The notes under the pieces were generated by a model, which was not told the origin of the DNA, did no database searches, and worked only from the letters and a program-made list of their open reading frames with translations. A program made the position numbers and the translations under genes. From the sequence record MK327935.1: a stretch of 64,000 nucleotides of DNA; one strand, given 5' to 3'. Source of the stretch: Escherichia phage vB_EcoM_G2494. Numbering within the stretch: position 1 is the first letter of the stretch; each line of letters opens with the position of its first letter. Of this stretch, positions 50,221 through 63,070 are shown piece after piece.

Positions 50221-50703
50221 TTTTGCTAAATCATTGCAATATTTTAGTGCCTTAGTTTGAAATTCTGCGCTGTTAAGTTCTTCATAACGGTCATAATCAC
50301 CGTTTAATGCTGCCTTTCTTGCTTCTTGCTCTATCTGCATGTCAGACATGATAATACAGCGATCCCGTGCTTTCATCTTCTCAAGTTGTATAGACTCTTC
50401 TTTCTGCTTGCGCAATTCTTCTTGACGCTTCTTTTCTTCTTGTGCTTTCTCTTCCCGCGCTTCTTTGATTGCATCCTTGAACATCTGCGTTTGTGGTGCT
50501 AAACCAACTTTAACGCGATCTACGTCTCGACGTTCCATTTTAGAAATAAAGCATGATTCGATCTTATCATCACTTGCATATGTTGCTTTACATTCACGAA
50601 GCAAGAAAACCGGATCTGATTTAGCATTCATCATAGCTTCCATGTTAGCACAACCAGTAAGCATGAATACAGCCGCAAGACCAATTAGTTTAATCATTTT
50701 CAT
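50218..50703 (-). CDS. lipoprotein
   Basis: 161 aa; signal peptide with lipobox LTGC; Glu/Lys-rich helical middle. Confidence 0.6.
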   Translation of the reverse strand: MKMIKLIGLAAVFMLTGCANMEAMMNAKSDPVFLLRECKATYASDDKIESCFISKMERRDVDRVKVGLAPQTQMFKDAIKEAREEKAQEEKKRQEELRKQKEESIQLEKMKARDRCIIMSDMQIEQEARKAALNGDYDRYEELNSAEFQTKALKYCNDLAK

Positions 50704-51524
50704 TTAGTCACCTCACCGAAAATTGTAAATTGTCTACGATTCTCATCGCCGAAAGATTCTACTACGTCGTTTACCTTGACGCAAGTCCCGCGCGGTAAAA
50801 TTACTTCACATTCGCAAGGGTTCCATGCAATGGACCCAACAACAAAACCTTTATGATCTTTTACATCAATCACCCATGATACATTACAAGAATGTTGCAT
50901 CTTTCCGGTCATTGATTCATATCGATTCTCACAATAAAGGCTAGTGCTGTTTGAAAGCCATCCTCCAAAGATGATCGGTGTCATGCTAGTAGATACAAAG
51001 TTTTTAAAGGTAAATTCCTTATCTTCAATAATACGCTCTATTGTCTGAATGTCAAGATGTTGACCGCGATAAAGAGTACCGTTTAACTTTTCGGTTTTAT
51101 CCATGACACAATCCATCAAATCAACAATCTCTGATATCTCATCGGTCATGTCTTCTTCCCCTAAGAGAGCACCATTTACCCATTCGTATTGTTCAGACAC
51201 ATAATCACAGATTGCATTATATTCTGCTGGGGTTATGTTGTTATGTTTGTAATGTTTGAATACATTATCTCCAAAGTCTTCGGAGTGTACTTCATACATC
51301 ACATTAATGATTTTCTTTACAAATCCATAATCTTGTGTCTCGCGCTCAAGGAAGCGGATAACCTTCACATAATCATCAAAGTTAATCTGATCGCTGATCA
51401 TTTCAGTGATCATGTAACCATTAATACCATCAATGTCATATGTTTCGATGTAATTATCCATACGTTCCATCATTGATTCGCGTGATTCTTCCGAAAGACG
51501 AAAATCCTGTAATTTCTTGAACAT
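50700..51524 (-). CDS. ADP-ribosyltransferase, short Alt/Mod-like paralog
   Basis: 274 aa; R-S-ExE motifs (LYRGQ, FVSTS, ECEVILPRG). Confidence 0.7.
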   Translation of the reverse strand: MFKKLQDFRLSEESRESMMERMDNYIETYDIDGINGYMITEMISDQINFDDYVKVIRFLERETQDYGFVKKIINVMYEVHSEDFGDNVFKHYKHNNITPAEYNAICDYVSEQYEWVNGALLGEEDMTDEISEIVDLMDCVMDKTEKLNGTLYRGQHLDIQTIERIIEDKEFTFKNFVSTSMTPIIFGGWLSNSTSLYCENRYESMTGKMQHSCNVSWVIDVKDHKGFVVGSIAWNPCECEVILPRGTCVKVNDVVESFGDENRRQFTIFGEVTK

Positions 51525-51546
51525 TTTAAACCTCCCATATAACAGA

Positions 51547-51585
51547 AAACGGGGCTAGTATAAAACTAGTCCCCGTTTGAGTCAA
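51547..51585 (-). promoter_or_regulatory. overlapping terminator hairpin and sigma70-type promoter
   Basis: minus strand TTGACT, 17-nt spacer, TATACT; spacer and -10 lie inside hairpin AAACGGGGCTAGT...ACTAGTCCCCGTTT. Confidence 0.5.
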
Positions 51586-51602: not shown

Positions 51603-53654
51603 TTACATTTTAAATTTATCTGGCATTGCGTCTACCGATACCAGATCAGCGATAAGCTGACGTAGAGTTGCCTTATCTGCTTTCTTACGTTCGGTTTTAG
51701 CTTCGGTAATAAATCTGGAGAAAGACAGGTCAGAAGCAGGTTTAACAACACCTTCACGGATGAATGCATCACCGTCCGCGATCATCTCACCAGATTCTTG
51801 TAATGCTGCCAGTTCATTTTTGTTCATAATATGTGCCTCAATGTAATAAGTTTCTTGTGAATCCGTCGATGCCGTAGCACGAGTTACCGTATCAAAGGAT
51901 AACACAACACCGCGAGGAAGTAAAATCTCGCATTCTTTGTAAGCAAATGCTTTGTTACCTACTGGCAACACAGGGATGTTTTCCGCGCCAGCAATGGAGA
52001 AAGCAACATTAGCGCCACCTTCACCGCGAGAGCCAGCCATAGAATCAACACCAGCAACGGCACTAGCCACGTTTGCATTCCAGCCGCCAAAAATGTTAGG
52101 TGCAAGGGAAGTGCTCACATAGTTTTTAAAGTAAAACGCTTTTTGCTTACGTGCAGTTTCCCACATTTGCGACCGGAAGTCCATACCACGATACAGAATA
52201 GTACCCGGATCAAGTTTAACGCCATAGTTGGAGAAGGCATTATCCAGTGCATCACACATCTTGACCAATTCTTCTGGATCTGCGATGCCTTCAAACTCTT
52301 CCAGCTTACGGTCGGTTAGGAAGTTGTTCATATTGATGTATGCTGCATCGGCATATTCGCTCAACACAAAACCTTCCGCGCCTGGCAGATCAAGATCAAT
52401 ATTTGCCATCATTTCACCCATGTTGCTAGCAATTGCTTCAAACATACCGGAAGCAACATTACGTAGGGCATCGGTTTTAATCTGGGTGATATGACTACGC
52501 AGCATTTCAGCTTTTACATCTGCTGGCATAGACTGGTCTACTCGATCCATTGCCAGGGCGGTGATCTTGTTTTCGAATACTTCCTCGCTCATGATTTCTT
52601 TTAAGCGTTTGATTGATGCTGCGATAACTTCCGCAGACAACGGATCATATTGATCCTGAACTTTTACCAGTTCGCTTACTGCGTATTTTGCATCGGCTTC
52701 GCTTTCAAAAATAGTACGCATGAAACCATAGCGAGTGATAATATCACTTGTCCATTCATTCAGAGAACGGGCGGTTGAACGTTCTAAGGCTTGACGATCA
52801 ATCAGAGTATTAAACTGTTTCTTAGGTTCGGCTTCGGTGATATCTTCTTCCGGTTTAAGATTAATTTTTTCTGGATGATTCACATAGTCGCTGTTATAGG
52901 TCGCTTGAGTTTTCAGCATTTCTTCTTTAGTCAAACGAGATTTAGCCGCTACGCGTTGTTCCGCTTCCGCGTTTCGTTCTTCTTCTGACACCAGACTAGC
53001 CGCATACGCCTCATCTTTAGTCAGAGATTCACCAGTAGCCTTAGATACCCAGCGATCACCTAAATCACTTTCTACTTTAGTGAACAAGGAATCATCAAGT
53101 TTAATCCCTTTAATCTTATCAATCGCCATACCGCGACGTTTGACAACAACTAAAGCGATCTTTTTGCTGGTCATTACTTCCTGCTGGAATACTTCAAACT
53201 TCGGTGTACGACGCACCAAACGCTCTATAACGCGCTTAACCAGTTCGGTCTTACCTTTCATGCGGGATACGTTAAAACGGAACATAACAGCGTCTAATTG
53301 CGCTTTACGGGCTGTTTCCATAACCACATCAAAAGCACTTGCCATAACTGCAATCGGGTTATCGCCTAGACCATTTTTAAGCTGTACAATACGACCGCTT
53401 TTGTTCATTTCGCACAGTACAACATGTGCGGTCTTGTCACCCATACGAATGATTTTAGGTGTTTTGTTGGTGAAGTTACAAAGACGGACAATCACATCTT
53501 TATCGCGTGTCTGTACTGCAAAAAGCTGTTTAGGATTCTGCTTAGGCTTTAAGCACTGTACCGGAGCAATACTGCCAAAGTTTTCTTCCTCTTCCGTCAA
53601 CAGCCATTTCTCGAAAGATTCAATCATTAGATCGTCGATTTCTAAGTTAAACAT
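51603..53654 (-). CDS. alt: Alt ADP-ribosyltransferase
   Basis: 683 aa (T4 Alt 682 aa); C-terminal ART motifs ILYRGMDF, YVSTSL, ECEILLPRG. Confidence 0.8.
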   Translation of the reverse strand: MFNLEIDDLMIESFEKWLLTEEEENFGSIAPVQCLKPKQNPKQLFAVQTRDKDVIVRLCNFTNKTPKIIRMGDKTAHVVLCEMNKSGRIVQLKNGLGDNPIAVMASAFDVVMETARKAQLDAVMFRFNVSRMKGKTELVKRVIERLVRRTPKFEVFQQEVMTSKKIALVVVKRRGMAIDKIKGIKLDDSLFTKVESDLGDRWVSKATGESLTKDEAYAASLVSEEERNAEAEQRVAAKSRLTKEEMLKTQATYNSDYVNHPEKINLKPEEDITEAEPKKQFNTLIDRQALERSTARSLNEWTSDIITRYGFMRTIFESEADAKYAVSELVKVQDQYDPLSAEVIAASIKRLKEIMSEEVFENKITALAMDRVDQSMPADVKAEMLRSHITQIKTDALRNVASGMFEAIASNMGEMMANIDLDLPGAEGFVLSEYADAAYINMNNFLTDRKLEEFEGIADPEELVKMCDALDNAFSNYGVKLDPGTILYRGMDFRSQMWETARKQKAFYFKNYVSTSLAPNIFGGWNANVASAVAGVDSMAGSRGEGGANVAFSIAGAENIPVLPVGNKAFAYKECEILLPRGVVLSFDTVTRATASTDSQETYYIEAHIMNKNELAALQESGEMIADGDAFIREGVVKPASDLSFSRFITEAKTERKKADKATLRQLIADLVSVDAMPDKFKM

Positions 53655-53722
53655 TTTATATCCTCTAGTTGATAACCTATAAACCTATATTTATGAAAAC
53701 GGGGCTTAACGCCCCCTTTTTA

Positions 53723-56380: not shown

Positions 56381-56394
56381 CACTTTTTATAAAA

Positions 56395-56562
56395 TTATTT
56401 GTTAATTTCCGGTGCGTTGCTTGGATAGTAACCTTCTTTAACACCCAGGTATTTCGCAACCATCCCTACAATCTTCTGTGCTACTACAATGTCAAATTTC
56501 AGATAATCTTCGCCGTGGGTTTCAATGATATATGCTTCACATGCTGCTTTAGTCTCGAACAT
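56395..56562 (-). CDS. small early protein (55 aa), paralog of 60188..60355
   Basis: MFETKAACEAYIIETHGEDYLKFDIVVAQKIVGMVAKYLGVKEGYYPSNAPEINK; below ORF-track cutoff; conserved RBS GGAGAATCAAA. Confidence 0.5.
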   Translation of the reverse strand: MFETKAACEAYIIETHGEDYLKFDIVVAQKIVGMVAKYLGVKEGYYPSNAPEINK

Positions 56563-56595
56563 TTTGATTCTCCTATTTCGTTTCGTTATGTGTGT

Positions 56596-57863: not shown

Positions 57864-57920
57864 TGCCTTTTTTAAAATTTTATGCAATAAAAAAGCCGAC
57901 ACTAAGGTCGGCTAATAAAA

Positions 57921-58229
57921 TCATTTAGACAAATAATCATTCTGTGCAATCCGGTCGGCGTATGCTGGTGTTATGTCAATCGCCAGCACTTTAACGCGTG
58001 CTTTCTTGCGACCTGGGTTTTCTCGTAACCAGTGCTCATGACCGTGAACATTTTTATACTGCGATGCTTCTTCGAAGGTACGGATCGGACCTGGGTAATC
58101 AGCGTAAAGGATCTCTAGATCTTCGGTGATGTAAAAATATACATCGTAATTGCTGTTCTCTAGCTTAAGCAGAGACTTTCGGAACATTGGGAGATTTTCG
58201 CGGGTAAATTCAAAGATATTATCTTTCAT
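57921..58229 (-). CDS. HxHW-family small early protein (paralog 1 of 7)
   Basis: 102 aa; YFYITEDLEILY ... HGHEHW ... VLAIDI. Confidence 0.5.
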   Translation of the reverse strand: MKDNIFEFTRENLPMFRKSLLKLENSNYDVYFYITEDLEILYADYPGPIRTFEEASQYKNVHGHEHWLRENPGRKKARVKVLAIDITPAYADRIAQNDYLSK

Positions 58230-58279
58230 AGTATTATCCTCAATAGTTGGATGAAAAGGGGGGCTTAACGCCCCGTATA

Positions 58280-58567
58280 TTAAAACAGTCCTTCCTGTAC
58301 ACCGTAGTAGAGTTCATCGCTGATAATTTCATTAATGCGACGGTGTGCATATTCCTGATTTGCGAAGTTGTCAGCAAGTTCTACTTTAGTTTCGCCGTCA
58401 TGAGTCCATTTAGTGATAACTTTACCATCTGCAAATTTGAAGTTGAACTCTTTAGCTACCGCATCGCGTACCAGACGTGCAAACTTATTGTTGCGGATTG
58501 CATTGTCGGTTTCGTGTTCAGCGTGAGCGAATTTGTTAACTTTCAGAGTGATAGTAATGTATGCCAT
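58280..58567 (-). CDS. small early protein, AKEFN-motif family (paralog of 61845..62156)
   Basis: 95 aa; ARLVRDAVAKEFNFKF vs AILIREVRKALAKEFNTKI in the other copy. Confidence 0.45.
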   Translation of the reverse strand: MAYITITLKVNKFAHAEHETDNAIRNNKFARLVRDAVAKEFNFKFADGKVITKWTHDGETKVELADNFANQEYAHRRINEIISDELYYGVQEGLF

Positions 58568-58613
58568 AATTTGATTCTCCTAGTTAGAAAGTGTATCTCG
58601 TTTCGATGGGTGT

Positions 58614-58642
58614 ATTATGCTATACACCCGATCTTATGTCAA
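58614..58642 (-). promoter_or_regulatory. sigma70-type early promoter
   Basis: TTGACA, 17 nt, CATAAT on minus strand. Confidence 0.55.
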
Positions 58643-58648
58643 CACTTT

Positions 58649-58927
58649 TTATAAAATAATTTTTTGATATTTTTCTATGATGTTTGTGTAGGTCACATCA
58701 ACCGCGAGCACCGTTGCTTCGAATCCACCGTTTAGCCAATGGCTATGATCGTGATCGTTAAAGAAACCGAGGCCAGTGCGAAGACCTTCTTTATATTCGG
58801 CGCGTACATTCAGTTTGTCGTCGATAAACAGATAAAACCATGAATTTTTACTAGGATTGATGATACAACCTTTCAGATTAGGGAGAATATCACGACTAAG
58901 AATAAACTTATCACCTACTTTGAACAT
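58649..58927 (-). CDS. HxHW-family small early protein (paralog 2)
   Basis: start taken at ATG 58925-58927 (MFKVG; track ORF starts at a GTG at 58942); FYLFIDDKLNV ... HDHSHW ... VLAVDV. Confidence 0.5.
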   Translation of the reverse strand: MFKVGDKFILSRDILPNLKGCIINPSKNSWFYLFIDDKLNVRAEYKEGLRTGLGFFNDHDHSHWLNGGFEATVLAVDVTYTNIIEKYQKIIL

Positions 58928-58931
58928 AATA

Positions 58932-59252
58932 TTAGTCCTCACTTATAAGGTCAAACCAATTGTTTTTCGCATAATGCTTAATGCGTGCTTGATCTGCTTC
59001 CGCTGGTGATAGATTCCATGCGATCACTACAACTTCTGACGCATCGTCATCCGTTTCTGATATCCAATGATTGTGATTCATACAGTTATTTGCTATCGCG
59101 TGAGCAAATGATCTCATTACTGGAGACGTATAATCATAGTAACGGATTTTCAGATTTTCATCAACGTACAAATAGATCGTATAAGGTTTATATTCAGTAA
59201 CCAGTAACAGACAGTTACGCAATTCTGGGAAAATCTTTTTAGTTAATTTCAT
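58932..59252 (-). CDS. HxHW-family small early protein (paralog 3)
   Basis: 106 aa; IYLYVDENLKI ... NHNHW ... VVVIAWNL. Confidence 0.5.
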   Translation of the reverse strand: MKLTKKIFPELRNCLLLVTEYKPYTIYLYVDENLKIRYYDYTSPVMRSFAHAIANNCMNHNHWISETDDDASEVVVIAWNLSPAEADQARIKHYAKNNWFDLISED

Positions 59253-59454
59253 AGTCTATTTCTCCGTAATACACGGTAATCCATTTTTCTTCATACTTTG
59301 TATCTTTCCAACACACAATCCCGTTTACTGTGCAATCTTTGGAATTGACGAATGATTCATATTGTTCTGCGTCTTCCATCATTGCATGAGCGGTCTTTTC
59401 ATCGAATATATCGCAGATCGCTTTATATGCTCAATAATCTTTAAATTTGCTCAT
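59239..59454 (-). pseudogene. tandem paralog of 59457..59666 with in-frame TGA at codon 8
   Basis: MSKFKDY-TGA-AYKAICDIF...AMMEDAEQYESF... parallels MSKFKDYKAYQQILRVY...KMMEDASKCPSF... of upstream copy. Confidence 0.4.
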
Positions 59455-59456
59455 AA

Positions 59457-59666
59457 TTAAGACCACTCAAGAGTTTTTGAAAACACATCTATCCATTGTT
59501 GAGTATATGCGGTTTCTTTCCATGATACAATACCAGTAGAATAATGGTTTTTGTTTCCAGAAAAGGACGGGCATTTTGATGCGTCTTCCATCATCTTTTC
59601 GGCGAACTCTGGTTCGTATACTCGCAAGATCTGTTGATATGCTTTGTAGTCTTTAAATTTGCTCAT
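59457..59666 (-). CDS. small early protein (69 aa)
   Basis: intact copy of a tandem gene pair. Confidence 0.45.
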   Translation of the reverse strand: MSKFKDYKAYQQILRVYEPEFAEKMMEDASKCPSFSGNKNHYSTGIVSWKETAYTQQWIDVFSKTLEWS

Positions 59667-59931
59667 AATCGTTAACTACCTTATCAGCTTCTTTTATTGT
59701 TTTTACATCAACTGCGATAACCCGTAAAGGTTCGTCATGGTTCCACCAATGATCGTGAATATCGGCTTGTGATTTATCACCAAAGGAATCACGAATATCA
59801 TTTTTACATTTATAGCTAATGTGACCTTCATAGTCAACATAAAGGTAATTATCGAAAATCGGCGTTTTTAAGATCATACCGAAAAATCTTTCTTTGTGTG
59901 TCTTATCCAGTGTTGCAGTAATTCGCATCAT
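59653..59931 (-). CDS. HxHW-family small early protein (paralog 4)
   Basis: 92 aa; NYLYVDYEGHI ... HDHWW ... VIAVDV. Confidence 0.5.
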   Translation of the reverse strand: MMRITATLDKTHKERFFGMILKTPIFDNYLYVDYEGHISYKCKNDIRDSFGDKSQADIHDHWWNHDEPLRVIAVDVKTIKEADKVVNDYEQI

Positions 59932-59943
59932 AATATATTCCTC

Positions 59944-60123
59944 TTAGAAAGGGATGGTCATTTCTTGAGCTTGTACATTCTCGTTAGGATTAAACTTCAT
60001 CCAACCGATATTGTCTACCAGCATATGCACATTTTTATCATATCCTACGTGAGTAGTCAACACTAAATGTGATTTACCTTCAACGATGATTTCCATGTAC
60101 TTCTGAACTTCGATAGCTTTCAT
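59944..60123 (-). CDS. small early protein (59 aa)
   Basis: RBS GGAGAATCAAA-ATG; MKAIEVQKYMEIIVEGK...; below ORF-track cutoff. Confidence 0.4.
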   Translation of the reverse strand: MKAIEVQKYMEIIVEGKSHLVLTTHVGYDKNVHMLVDNIGWMKFNPNENVQAQEMTIPF

Positions 60124-60155
60124 TTTGATTCTCCGTTTGTTGTCTTGATGGGAGT

Positions 60156-60184
60156 ATCTTACTACTCCCTTTAATCATTGTCAA
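60156..60184 (-). promoter_or_regulatory. sigma70-type early promoter
   Basis: TTGACA, 17 nt, TAAGAT on minus strand. Confidence 0.4.
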
Positions 60185-60187
60185 CGA

Positions 60188-60355
60188 TTATTTGTTAATT
60201 TCCGGTGCGTTGCTTGGATAGTAGCCTTCTTTAACACCCAGATATTTTGCAACCATTCCGGTGATCTTCTGTGCTACTACGATATCGAATTTCAGGTAGT
60301 CTTCACCGTGGTTTGCTACAATGTATGCTTCGCATTCTGCTTTAGTCTGGAACAT
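60188..60355 (-). CDS. small early protein (55 aa), paralog of 56395..56562
   Basis: MFQTKAECEAYIVANHGEDYLKFDIVVAQKITGMVAKYLGVKEGYYPSNAPEINK; track ORF extended to 60448 runs through the promoter and is rejected. Confidence 0.5.
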   Translation of the reverse strand: MFQTKAECEAYIVANHGEDYLKFDIVVAQKITGMVAKYLGVKEGYYPSNAPEINK

Positions 60356-60389
60356 TTTTGATTCTCCTATATCTCGTTGGTATGTGTGT

Positions 60390-60418
60390 AGTATAGGGGA
60401 TCGGTGATCCCCTGTCAA
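60390..60418 (-). promoter_or_regulatory. sigma70-type early promoter with palindromic spacer
   Basis: TTGACA-ggggatcaccgatcccc-TATACT on minus strand. Confidence 0.6.
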
Positions 60419-60428
60419 CAACTTTTTT

Positions 60429-60737
60429 TTATTCTTCATCTTCATCATTATCTTTATATGCGTACTTCATAAATTTGTCTGCTACTTCGTCCGCGTTTTC
60501 AGGTTCTACGTCTGACGCTAGGACAACAGCTAGTTCGGTTTTGTCGTTTCCATCATACCAATGATTATGAGTGTCGTTTTCTTCGATATAAAACGAATCA
60601 GTTGGAGTTGTGCGACAATATACGTCTAAATTCCCATCGATATAAAAGATCCAATCCGAATACAAAATGATTGTTTTAGCAAGATTTTTATTGTCTCTCA
60701 CAAAAGGTTCTGAGACAAATAGCTTAGTTTGTTCCAT
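60429..60737 (-). CDS. HxHW-family small early protein (paralog 5)
   Basis: start at ATG 60735-60737 (MEQTK) with SD GAGGA; IFYIDGNLDVY ... HNHW ... VVLASDV; acidic tail. Confidence 0.5.
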   Translation of the reverse strand: MEQTKLFVSEPFVRDNKNLAKTIILYSDWIFYIDGNLDVYCRTTPTDSFYIEENDTHNHWYDGNDKTELAVVLASDVEPENADEVADKFMKYAYKDNDEDEE

Positions 60738-60753
60738 AACATTTTCCTCAAAA

Positions 60754-60945
60754 TTATACAGCTTCGTAAACTTCCCAATGTCCAGCGCCAACACGCTTAA
60801 CGAAAAGGTTTTCTTTGATGTTATTCATAAACGTCTGGATGGATTTAATGCGGTTTGAAGGTTTCCAGTCTTCGTTGGAATTGCGTCGATACATCATAAC
60901 ATTACCAGTTCGCTTATATTCAGCAACCATTTTAAGACCATACAT
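60754..60945 (-). CDS. hypothetical small early protein
   Basis: 63 aa ORF ending immediately before RBS of next gene. Confidence 0.35.
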   Translation of the reverse strand: MYGLKMVAEYKRTGNVMMYRRNSNEDWKPSNRIKSIQTFMNNIKENLFVKRVGAGHWEVYEAV

Positions 60946-60996
60946 AATATTATCATCAATTTGTGGGAGAGTATTACCCTCCCGATTATTGTTATA

Positions 60997-61305
60997 CTAC
61001 ATTACGCAAAATGGCGTGTCAATACTTCTTTTTGCTGTTCCGCTAAGATTCTCGATCTCTCCTGGCATAACATCAACCGCCAGAACTTCTACAACATCCT
61101 CTGATCCTAACCAGTGAGTATGACCTTTGTAGAACTTGATATCCCATTTATCGCTATCGCTAGCCCACCACACATCACCGTCTATAAAGTTGATGTAAAG
61201 CACACTACGACACATTGAATTAGTTACTTTCAATACTGCGCCTTTCATCTCTTCCACGGTATGGTCTTCCATTTTGAAGACCTCGCCTACCTTAACTTTT
61301 GCCAT
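60997..61305 (-). CDS. HxHW-family small early protein (paralog 6)
   Basis: start at ATG 61303-61305 (MAKVKVG); LYINFIDGDVWW ... HTHW ... VLAVDV. Confidence 0.5.
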   Translation of the reverse strand: MAKVKVGEVFKMEDHTVEEMKGAVLKVTNSMCRSVLYINFIDGDVWWASDSDKWDIKFYKGHTHWLGSEDVVEVLAVDVMPGEIENLSGTAKRSIDTPFCVM

Positions 61306-61306
61306 G

Positions 61307-61573
61307 TTACATGTTCCGAATATGTTTAGATGCATCTTCCAGTTCGTCGATAGTGACACTGTGAGCCAGTAAGTGTACTGGTTGTGGTTCTTCACCTTCC
61401 ATAGTATTGATCAGATGACCGTTTCCTGGGTGGAATGTATCGTTGCCGTTCCAAATAGCATACACATCATCTTCTGTTACGTAGATAATAAGTCCAATCG
61501 GTGATTCTGGTAATTGAAAAATTTTACCCACTGCATCTTTGCGATTGTCTACGATATCTTTGACTGTCTTCAT
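61307..61573 (-). CDS. HxHW-family-related small early protein (paralog 7, motif degenerate)
   Basis: 88 aa; LIIYVTEDDVYAI conserved strand, GNGHLI in place of HxHW. Confidence 0.45.
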   Translation of the reverse strand: MKTVKDIVDNRKDAVGKIFQLPESPIGLIIYVTEDDVYAIWNGNDTFHPGNGHLINTMEGEEPQPVHLLAHSVTIDELEDASKHIRNM

Positions 61574-61582
61574 TTAGTTACC

Positions 61583-61762
61583 TCTCTTTAAATTACATCA
61601 CAATCACGCCAGCCGTAGAAAGTTGATGTTTCAACTGAGCATTTTCTGCTACTGTCAAATCAATAATTTCTTGTGACGCTGCAATCATATAGCCATTGGT
61701 GATATTGTTTTGCATCAGTTCAATGGTTTCTTCGTTGTAGCGGATTTTAGCGATGATTTCGT
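61583..61762 (-). CDS. small early protein (59 aa)
   Basis: RBS GGAGAATCAATT-ATG; MNFNEIIAKIRYNEETIELMQ...; below ORF-track cutoff. Confidence 0.4.
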
Positions 61763-61806
61763 TGAAGTTCATAATTGATTCTCCTAGTTCGTTTCGGTAT
61801 GTGTGT

Positions 61807-61836
61807 ATTATAGGGGAGTTTAACCTCCCCTGTCAA
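61807..61836 (-). promoter_or_regulatory. sigma70-type early promoter with palindromic spacer
   Basis: TTGACA-ggggaggttaaactcccc-TATAAT on minus strand. Confidence 0.6.
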
Positions 61837-61844
61837 CAACTTTT

Positions 61845-62156
61845 TTAAAGTTTTTCCATGATAACGGTCATAATTACATCTTCTGCGCGAGCGGTCAGAT
61901 TATCAGCGTCAGCATGTGGGCGGTTGGTTGTTACAGAGATAACACCGTTGCGCACTGGTTTGATATTGATATCAAGATGATCCGCGAAACGTTCGCCAGT
62001 TACAGAATGAATTTTGGTGTTAAATTCTTTTGCCAGTGCCTTGCGAACTTCACGAATCAGGATAGCGTTTTTCAGTTGGTTCTCCGCGCTCATGGTCTTC
62101 TGGGTGTTCATGGTTCCGTCGAAGTCAATCATTGGCAGCGTTACGATGTATTTCAT
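61845..62156 (-). CDS. small early protein, AKEFN-motif family
   Basis: 103 aa; paralog of 58280..58567. Confidence 0.45.
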   Translation of the reverse strand: MKYIVTLPMIDFDGTMNTQKTMSAENQLKNAILIREVRKALAKEFNTKIHSVTGERFADHLDINIKPVRNGVISVTTNRPHADADNLTARAEDVIMTVIMEKL

Positions 62157-62201
62157 TTTTGATTCTCCGTTTAAGAAAGTGTGTTTCGTTTTGATGTGTG
62201 T

Positions 62202-62230
62202 AGTATAGGGGATACGTGATCCCCTGTCAA
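62202..62230 (-). promoter_or_regulatory. sigma70-type early promoter with palindromic spacer
   Basis: TTGACA-ggggatcacgtatcccc-TATACT on minus strand. Confidence 0.6.
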
Positions 62231-62322
62231 CAACTTTTTTGAATTATTTTTTCATGAGCTTAATGGCTTCTTCCATAGCCAGCACATTTCGATAGTTAGG
62301 GTATCGTGTTAGATCGTCATAC

Positions 62323-62596: not shown

Positions 62597-63070
62597 TTAC
62601 TCCTTATTTTCGCGCTCGTACTTTTCGAAATAAAATTCTACTGGCTGGTCGTGGATTGACAGTAAGCCAAAGCGTTTAGCCGCTCGCAATCCCATATTGC
62701 GCTGAATGTACTTCTGGAAGTTCTCGCGTATACACTTACGCCAGTATTCTAAGCCCATACAGCTTTTGTAAAGATTGCATTGCACACAAGCCGGATTCAT
62801 ATTATCAAGTATATCGTGCTCCGGTTTATGCATTCCTACAACCTTATACTTCCACGATCCATCATCATTACGGGCAATTCGTCCATTTTCATCATAGACT
62901 ACCTTTGAGCGTCGCAATACTGGTTTGATGTGGTCTGCGTGCCATCGGTCCCCTAGTTCCTCGCCACAATAGGCACAACGCCCACCGTATTTCATTTTCA
63001 GGATCTGGCGTTGCTCTTTCTTTGACAATTTTTTAGGTTTAGGGGCTTTCGCCCCTTCATTATCACACAT
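62597..63070 (-). CDS. HNH endonuclease
   Basis: 157 aa; CAYCGEELGDRWHADHIKP ... NMNPACVQCNLYK HNH/zinc-finger motifs; basic N-terminus. Confidence 0.65.
   Translation of the reverse strand: MCDNEGAKAPKPKKLSKKEQRQILKMKYGGRCAYCGEELGDRWHADHIKPVLRRSKVVYDENGRIARNDDGSWKYKVVGMHKPEHDILDNMNPACVQCNLYKSCMGLEYWRKCIRENFQKYIQRNMGLRAAKRFGLLSIHDQPVEFYFEKYERENKE

Follow-up and report, generated by a model that had tools for sequence, protein, structure and literature searches.

The 64,000-nt stretch of the genome of Escherichia phage vB_EcoM_G2494 that was analysed here (sequence record MK327935.1, hereafter the window) contains seven open reading frames (ORFs) on the minus strand at positions 57921–61573, designated m1 to m7, which together constitute one protein family, with six unambiguous members and m7 as a true but divergent one. 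The 3.9-kb segment carrying this array is 91–96% identical to approximately 58 genomes of the genus Krischvirus (RB49-like T4-type coliphages), and in annotated relatives it is flanked by the gp30 DNA ligase and an HNH endonuclease upstream and by the Alt ADP-ribosyltransferase downstream, while every gene of the segment itself is labelled "hypothetical protein". The array lies in the hyperplastic region between the ligase gene (gene 30) and alt, and is located on the early strand with interspersed cassettes of a σ70 promoter and a stem-loop, as is characteristic of PeSL-ORFan regions. Both phage therapy cocktails and screens of defence systems make wide use of Krischvirus phages, and the hyperplastic regions of RB49-like phages are annotated almost wholly as "hypothetical".

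Membership and conserved core of the family

Alignment of the seven ORFs showed a common core, consisting of a Y-x-Y/F-I-D strand, an H-x-H-W motif and a VLAVDV-like strand. An initial annotation of this DNA, made from the sequence alone, had grouped the same seven genes, and this grouping was borne out by the ORFs, the alignment, motif counts, hidden Markov models (HMMs) and hhalign. The same annotation described the termini as divergent, which was overstated, as most copies share the element L-K-G-x-I-L in the N-terminal part and the helix P-x-E-A-D in the C-terminal part. The shared core is statistically supported: among the 581 ORFs of 40 aa or longer that the six frames of the window contain, with expectations derived from residue shuffles, H.HW was present in six ORFs, every one of them in the array (0.55 expected), and the compound motif H.HW...[VIL][VIL]A.[DN][VIL] occurred six times, versus an expectation of 0.0. 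Pairwise BLASTP searches within the window joined m1 to m6 transitively (m1-m3 6e-12, m1-m2 1.5e-4, m2-m4 2e-3), and HMMs built with one subfamily left out at a time regained each omitted member of m1 to m6 with E-values of 1e-10 to 1e-16, with the top unrelated ORF of the window at E ≥ 0.1.

The m7 protein had no BLAST link to the other members within the window, and its detection by the family HMM was marginal (E 0.01–0.16). A profile of m7 homologs did match the family profile using hhalign (probability 91.9%, E 7e-7, 75 columns), and the AlphaFold2 model of m2 matched the BFVD model of C4MZ33, which is the ortholog of m7 in phage JSE (Foldseek probability 1.00, TM 0.58–0.63). Because of this profile match and the structural match to C4MZ33 we include m7 in the family, and conclude that the seven-member family is real.

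Using the start codons of related genomes, the proteins are 88–106 aa in length, rather than the 88–121 aa annotated initially. The upstream frame of m5 (60429–60794) is open for approximately 19 codons beyond the ATG, and counting in this open frame had resulted in the length of 121 aa. Pairwise identity between the paralogs is 19–36%, and the duplications are therefore old.

When 1.84 billion cluster representatives were searched exhaustively with a HMMER profile, only 22 proteins were obtained at E ≤ 1e-3, and these were small Krischvirus-type or metagenomic ORFs, with the exception of P0095. This 1034-aa repeat protein with seven 'stretches' has many sub-threshold Pfam hits and no stretch that is significant alone, and the hit was rejected as an artefact because the scores of repeats were summed. 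None of the 22 hits was a T4 protein, nor was a T4 homolog found in BFVD, consistent with the initial statement that the family is not a named T4 protein. Scans of Pfam and NCBIfam gave no family above threshold, and no defence model of PADLOC-DB matched any of the seven proteins at E ≤ 1. Hits to PROCT (MPN-like, with m2), TTL and plant acid phosphatase were each restricted to a single member and sub-threshold, and were attributed to chance; the E...H-x-H-x7-S-x2-D metal motif of JAMM/MPN proteins was absent, and the Pfam gathering threshold for this family was not reached.

Transcription units of the array

The PeSL cassettes of phages RB49 and phi1 were described as consisting of an AT-rich tract, a TTGACA hexamer, a GGGG...CCCC stem-loop and a TATAAT-like hexamer, and their promoter and terminator activities have been measured experimentally, including those of the strong PeSL206/205 (PMC2839356). 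The repeat family found in the window (63–95 nt, with TTGACA, 17 nt, a TATAAT-like hexamer and a GGGG/CCCC stem-loop) matches this description. With its three PeSLs and two further promoter-like sites, the array comprises at most five polycistronic units (Table 1), each promoter being followed first by an unrelated ORF of 55–95 aa, with one to three family members after it.

Table 1. Family members, promoter cassettes and terminator-like elements of the array (window coordinates)
Feature	Position	Strand	Length	Sequence characteristics	Ortholog, context or genes that follow
m1	57921..58229	-	102 aa	HGHEHW...VLAIDI	RB49ORF197c / G2494_00200; matches PHROG 9345 (function unknown)
m2	58649..58927	-	92 aa from ATG	HDHSHW...VLAVDV	RB49ORF199c
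m3	58932..59252	-	106 aa	NHNHW...VVIAWNL	RB49ORF200c
m4	59653..59931	-	92 aa	HDHWW...VIAVDV	RB49ORF203c
m5	60429..60737	-	102 aa from ATG (MEQTK)	THNHW...VVLASDV; net charge about -16	RB49ORF206c
m6	60997..61305	-	102 aa from ATG (MAKVK)	GHTHW...VLAVDV; C-terminal tail frameshifted	RB49ORF208c
m7	61307..61573	-	88 aa	N-G-H-L replaces HxHW; LLAHSV	Variable cassette; no RB49 equivalent
PeSL cassette	61775..61855	-		TTGACA...TATAAT, GGGG/CCCC stem-loop	59-aa ORF 61593-61772, m7, m6
PeSL-like promoter	60970..61022	-		TTGACA, 17 nt, TAGTAT, downstream stem-loop	Inside m6 3' end; 63-aa ORF 60754-60945, m5
PeSL cassette	60374..60436	-			Equivalent of published PeSL206/205; 55-aa ORF 60188-60355
Promoter-like site	60156..60184	-		TTGACA, 17 nt, TAAGAT	59-aa ORF 59944-60123, m4, ORF202/201 equivalents, m3, m2
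PeSL cassette	58570..58664	-			95-aa ORF 58280-58567, stem-loop, m1
Stem-loop	58260..58274	-		GC-rich	Between ORF198 equivalent and m1; annotated terminator in G37-3
Terminator-like hairpin	57894..57913	-		Hairpin and T-run	Directly downstream of m1; annotated terminator in G2248 and G37-3

Most copies had initially been credited with their own early promoter, which proved wrong: none of the seven (0/7) has a PeSL or other promoter directly before it, and all are second or later behind an unrelated small ORF. There is also no promoter between m1 and the GC-rich stem-loop that precedes it. The leader ORFs do not form a second family, as they showed no mutual similarity other than that of the ORF201/202 pair and the ORF205/56395 duplication. 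No TATAAATA late promoter was found on the minus strand, and since the PeSL promoters are of the σ70 type the genes are likely to be early, in line with the early region proposed initially; the promoter layout implies that the array would be transcribed immediately early by the host σ70 RNA polymerase.

Two further features of these cassettes were observed. The 103-aa ORF at 61845–62156, which is the equivalent of RB49 ORF210, lies between the PeSLs at 61775–61855 and 62186–62248, approximately 394 nt apart, and this PeSL-bracketed unit corresponds to the ORFan210 mini-circle of approximately 400 bp detected by inverse PCR by Arbiol et al. 2010 (PMC2839356). It has no BLASTP link to the 95-aa ORF at 58280–58567, and an '...AKEFN.K...' segment common to both was recognised by eye. 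In addition, a 172-nt direct duplication (56394–56565 and 60187–60358, 87% identity) encodes two 55-aa proteins (MF(E/Q)TKA(A/E)CEAYI...SNAPEINK), each located directly behind a PeSL.

Conservation, distribution and recombination

The ratio of non-synonymous to synonymous substitutions (dN/dS) in orthologs of m1 to m5 was 0.03–0.47, with m2 at 0.03–0.08, which represents purifying selection and not the diversification suggested in the initial annotation. The dN/dS ratio near 1 obtained for m6 orthologs is an artefact of its frameshifted C-terminal tail. This tail results from a +1 frameshift in an A-run (window 61000–61030), which alters the last ~9 residues to KRSIDTPFCVM, versus KEALTRHFV elsewhere, and was found among database entries only in phage G2494; the bases involved also hold the -35 TTGACA of the PeSL-like promoter. 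The m5 gene is present in the genus as two deep alleles (72% amino acid identity, dS > 1).

Six copies are kept in essentially all of the ~56 sequenced members of the genus. The m1 gene was found in 56 Krischvirus records, with frameshifted versions in phages JSE and kvi, and m7 was present in only seven sequenced Krischvirus phages. The genes are maintained by purifying selection, but a phage can do without single copies, as m7 is found in a minority of genomes and m1 is frameshifted in two phages. All sequenced carriers found by tblastn were Krischvirus records, and in the close relative pEJ01, where two family HMMs were run against ~98% of the genome, members were detected in this array only, as expected for the locally expanded family that the initial annotation had proposed.

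The cassettes readily fuse or recombine, and in-frame fusions are frequent. In Escherichia phage FL04, ORF207 is fused in frame to ORF206 (P0291), giving one 172-aa ORF with the m5 equivalent, and other homologs include a tandem fusion with two family domains (P0088), a 260-aa ORF composed of two ORF202-like units and one ORF200-like domain, and an ORF204::ORF208 chimera. In a more distant relative, represented by a metagenomic contig of 2.1 kb, four ORFs encode five family domains.

A homolog of m7 (97 aa, 64% identity) was detected in Salmonella enterica assemblies (L013–L016, 10001–10294), where it occupies the terminal position at a prophage edge, behind a small membrane-protein ORF and a 78-aa ORF, and is followed by a terminator and then chromosomal genes; the terminase of this prophage is of the GpA type. 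This arrangement implies horizontal exchange between a virulent T4-type phage and a temperate phage. The m7 lineage had no match in plasmids, nor in other sequenced phages.

Several observations were made on neighbouring genes. The equivalent of RB49 ORF201c (59239–59454, minus strand) has an in-frame TGA at codon 8 (MSKFKDY*AYKAICDIF...), and is probably a pseudogene or re-initiated at an internal ATG (47 aa). It is paralogous to the adjacent ORF at 59457–59666 (BLASTP 4e-13), and in a metagenomic relative a pair of the ORF201/ORF202 type forms one fusion with a family domain. The HNH endonuclease ORF (62597–63070, minus strand, 157 aa, equivalent of RB49 ORF212c) shares 8 nt with the 3′ end of the DNA ligase gene, and probably entered the site between gene 30 and the hyperplastic region by a homing-type insertion. 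On the other side of the array, the Alt-like ADP-ribosyltransferase ORF (51606–53684, minus strand) and the downstream ORF (50703–51554, minus strand) share ~109 aa with 37% identity (BLASTP 4e-15), consistent with the duplication of alt and an alt-like paralog reported for RB49 (ORF183c).

Predicted fold, possible role and relation to known systems

The AlphaFold2 model of m2 (predicted local distance difference test score (pLDDT) 85.8, predicted TM score 0.80) consists of a strand, a helix, three strands, two short helices, a strand formed by the VLAVDV segment and a C-terminal helix, with the second short helix bearing the sequence S-H-W-L-N. Neither a significant fold match nor an enzyme-like match was found for this model, the family has no PDB relative, and the model's neighbours with low Z-scores include the small barrels eL14, mS34, LSm, RimP and MazF. 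Together with the predicted strand order this suggests that the five-strand core may be an SH3-like small barrel, with a His-Trp insert between strands 4 and 5. The order of elements in a model of m7 was compatible with that of m2, but this model was based on five sequences with a pLDDT of 55, and was not used as evidence.

Conservation of the His motif was assessed in a family alignment of 36 sequences, representing all seven lineages and metagenomic relatives. The second His of H-x-H, which is H68 of m2 when numbered as in the modelled 97-aa sequence, is the sole invariant His. The Trp that follows it is conserved in all lineages but that of m7, which has Leu at this position. Several lineages have N, S or a gap instead of the first His, which some m5 orthologs also lack, and VDV often carries N, G or S in place of its Asp. 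The His-rich metal site proposed in the initial annotation is weakened by this variability, and as only one His is invariant, an obligatory or universal H-x-H...D metal site appears unlikely, while it is possible that the single His is functionally or structurally critical. The proteins are soluble and neutral to strongly acidic (isoelectric point 4.2–6.8), have no Cys/His cluster, and contain neither a signal peptide nor a transmembrane segment.

With one invariant His and no conserved catalytic set, we tentatively favour stoichiometric binding, in which the family may consist of binders of host or defence components that act early in infection. Each paralog encodes a single small alpha/beta domain of about 90–105 aa, soluble and neutral to acidic, which would bind or inhibit host or host-defence macromolecules stoichiometrically and non-enzymatically, with the diverged paralogs probably recognising different targets. 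Rather than belonging to the core T4-type machinery, the proteins most likely serve as optional factors for fitness or host range. This is the most economical reading, since it accommodates the lack of a catalytic set, the soluble neutral-to-acidic proteins, the deep divergence of the paralogs and their accessory distribution, where the edge of the Salmonella prophage is a typical accessory ('moron') position for the m7 lineage. Host takeover or anti-defence, as initially proposed, is a plausible candidate role. Some points weigh against stoichiometric binding: the homologs of the family include no characterised protein; the early timing is deduced from promoter sequence; and the invariant His, the near-invariant Trp and the frequent Asp residues (YID, VDV and EAD) could instead line an active site, or a pocket for a ligand or a metal. 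In a more specific and rather unlikely version, the seven paralogs would be an immune-evasion family with a small barrel and a His/Trp pocket, each copy directed against a different E. coli defence or signal, together forming a PeSL-shuffled 'anti-defence island' with m7 exchanged with Salmonella prophages.

A small-molecule or metal-binding domain, such as a Tad2-like sponge of immune nucleotides or a small metalloenzyme with a pocket formed by HxHW and Asp residues, would be in line with His and Trp being the best conserved feature of the family, and would be compatible with the tandem fusion P0088, where the pocket could be located between two domains; two DUF2829 proteins are also present low in the BFVD list. 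However, profile comparison did not support DUF2829 (PF11195; Tad2/AcrIIA7) as a relative, with an hhalign probability of 0.1–0.2% and E-values of 0.3–0.4 for two family alignments against a 30-sequence DUF2829 alignment, and Pfam scans at E ≤ 10, which covered 18 members, never reported PF11195. None of the invariant DUF2829 residues (R-x-G-W-N-G-K-G and P-W-L-A-S-Q-T-D-x-L-A-E-D-W) is present in the 36-sequence alignment, and the VLAVDV segment, which is a strand in the m2 model, is a further difference from DUF2829, Tad2 and AcrIIA7. As the m7 lineage and several m5 orthologs lack the first His, the Asp of VDV is often replaced, and Pfam and PADLOC gave no match, we regard such a pocket as unlikely. 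Small-barrel proteins of the KOW, Sm and Tudor types often bind nucleic acid, the ribosome or RNA polymerase, and the predicted strand order would fit binders of this kind that retune host or phage expression early in infection. An m2 ortholog (P0070) is labelled 'KOW2-KOW3 of Spt5' by a public source, and the N-terminal half of the proteins gave Spindlin (Tudor-like) hits, but barrel, label and Spindlin signals are all below significance, and the Spindlin hits were rejected as they vanish with a broader profile. The neutral to strongly acidic character of the proteins is unfavourable for such binding, the alignment contains no conserved basic patch, and this role is just as unlikely as that of a pocket.

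The position of the Salmonella m7-like gene at the end of a small operon at the prophage edge, behind a membrane-protein ORF, is classic for lysogenic-conversion or exclusion genes, and would suit superinfection exclusion or moron-type defence against other phages instead of counter-defence. We find this quite improbable for the family, as only the m7 lineage is present in prophages, anti-defence genes also occupy such positions, and the proteins lack signal peptides, transmembrane segments and matches to PADLOC defence models. The ORFs could, lastly, be functionless passengers of PeSL shuffling, either selfish or decaying ORFans that share a motif through recent duplication, and it is true that some genomes have lost single copies or carry them in frameshifted or fused form, and that the region is a known hotspot of recombination (PMC2839356). 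This is very improbable and largely refuted by the purifying selection on the orthologs (dN/dS 0.03–0.47), and the paralogs share the same core and a confident predicted fold despite their low identity, six copies are kept throughout the genus, and the divergent metagenomic relative also has a dense array. Returning to stoichiometric binding, if the role is indeed anti-defence or host takeover, the seven-fold divergence would represent natural target diversification within one phage genome.

What can be stated firmly is that the array encodes an orphan, lineage-restricted domain family of seven lineages, on early units of a known hyperplastic region with recombinationally mobile cassettes. Six or seven of the ~16 ORFs in one hyperplastic region thus belong to a single ancient and selectively maintained family, so that a formerly anonymous set of ORFans becomes a defined, tractable target and a candidate for screens of anti-defence or host-takeover functions. 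No functional study of these ORFs was found in the literature.

Comparison with SH3-like barrels (KOW, Tudor/Spindlin and Sm) gave no significant sequence or structure score, and the His-Trp insert and C-terminal helix of the family are foreign to those families. PHROGs 9345, 17255, 15972, 15965 and 16486, all of unknown function, match six members with E-values of 1e-49 to 1e-64, and PHROG 9345 weakly cross-matches four subfamilies; m1 to m6 are thereby divided among five separate groups and m7 is missed, whereas here they form one family of seven lineages. The genome region and regulatory cassettes are the same as those of the PeSL-flanked ORFans of RB49 and phi1 (PMC2839356; Comeau et al. 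2014, PMC4122927), and the family members are among the 'ORFans' of the RB49 cluster (RB49 ORFs 197–208). A text search found no mention of paralogy of these ORFans in PMC2839356 or in the five-genome comparison PMC1524935. The region, its PeSL shuffling and the genes as hypothetical proteins were already known, and the unification of the ORFans as one paralogous family is new here. Unlike the published cassettes, the members are not individually flanked by PeSLs, which refines the published picture: they follow leader ORFs to which they are unrelated, and in-frame fusion is tolerated.

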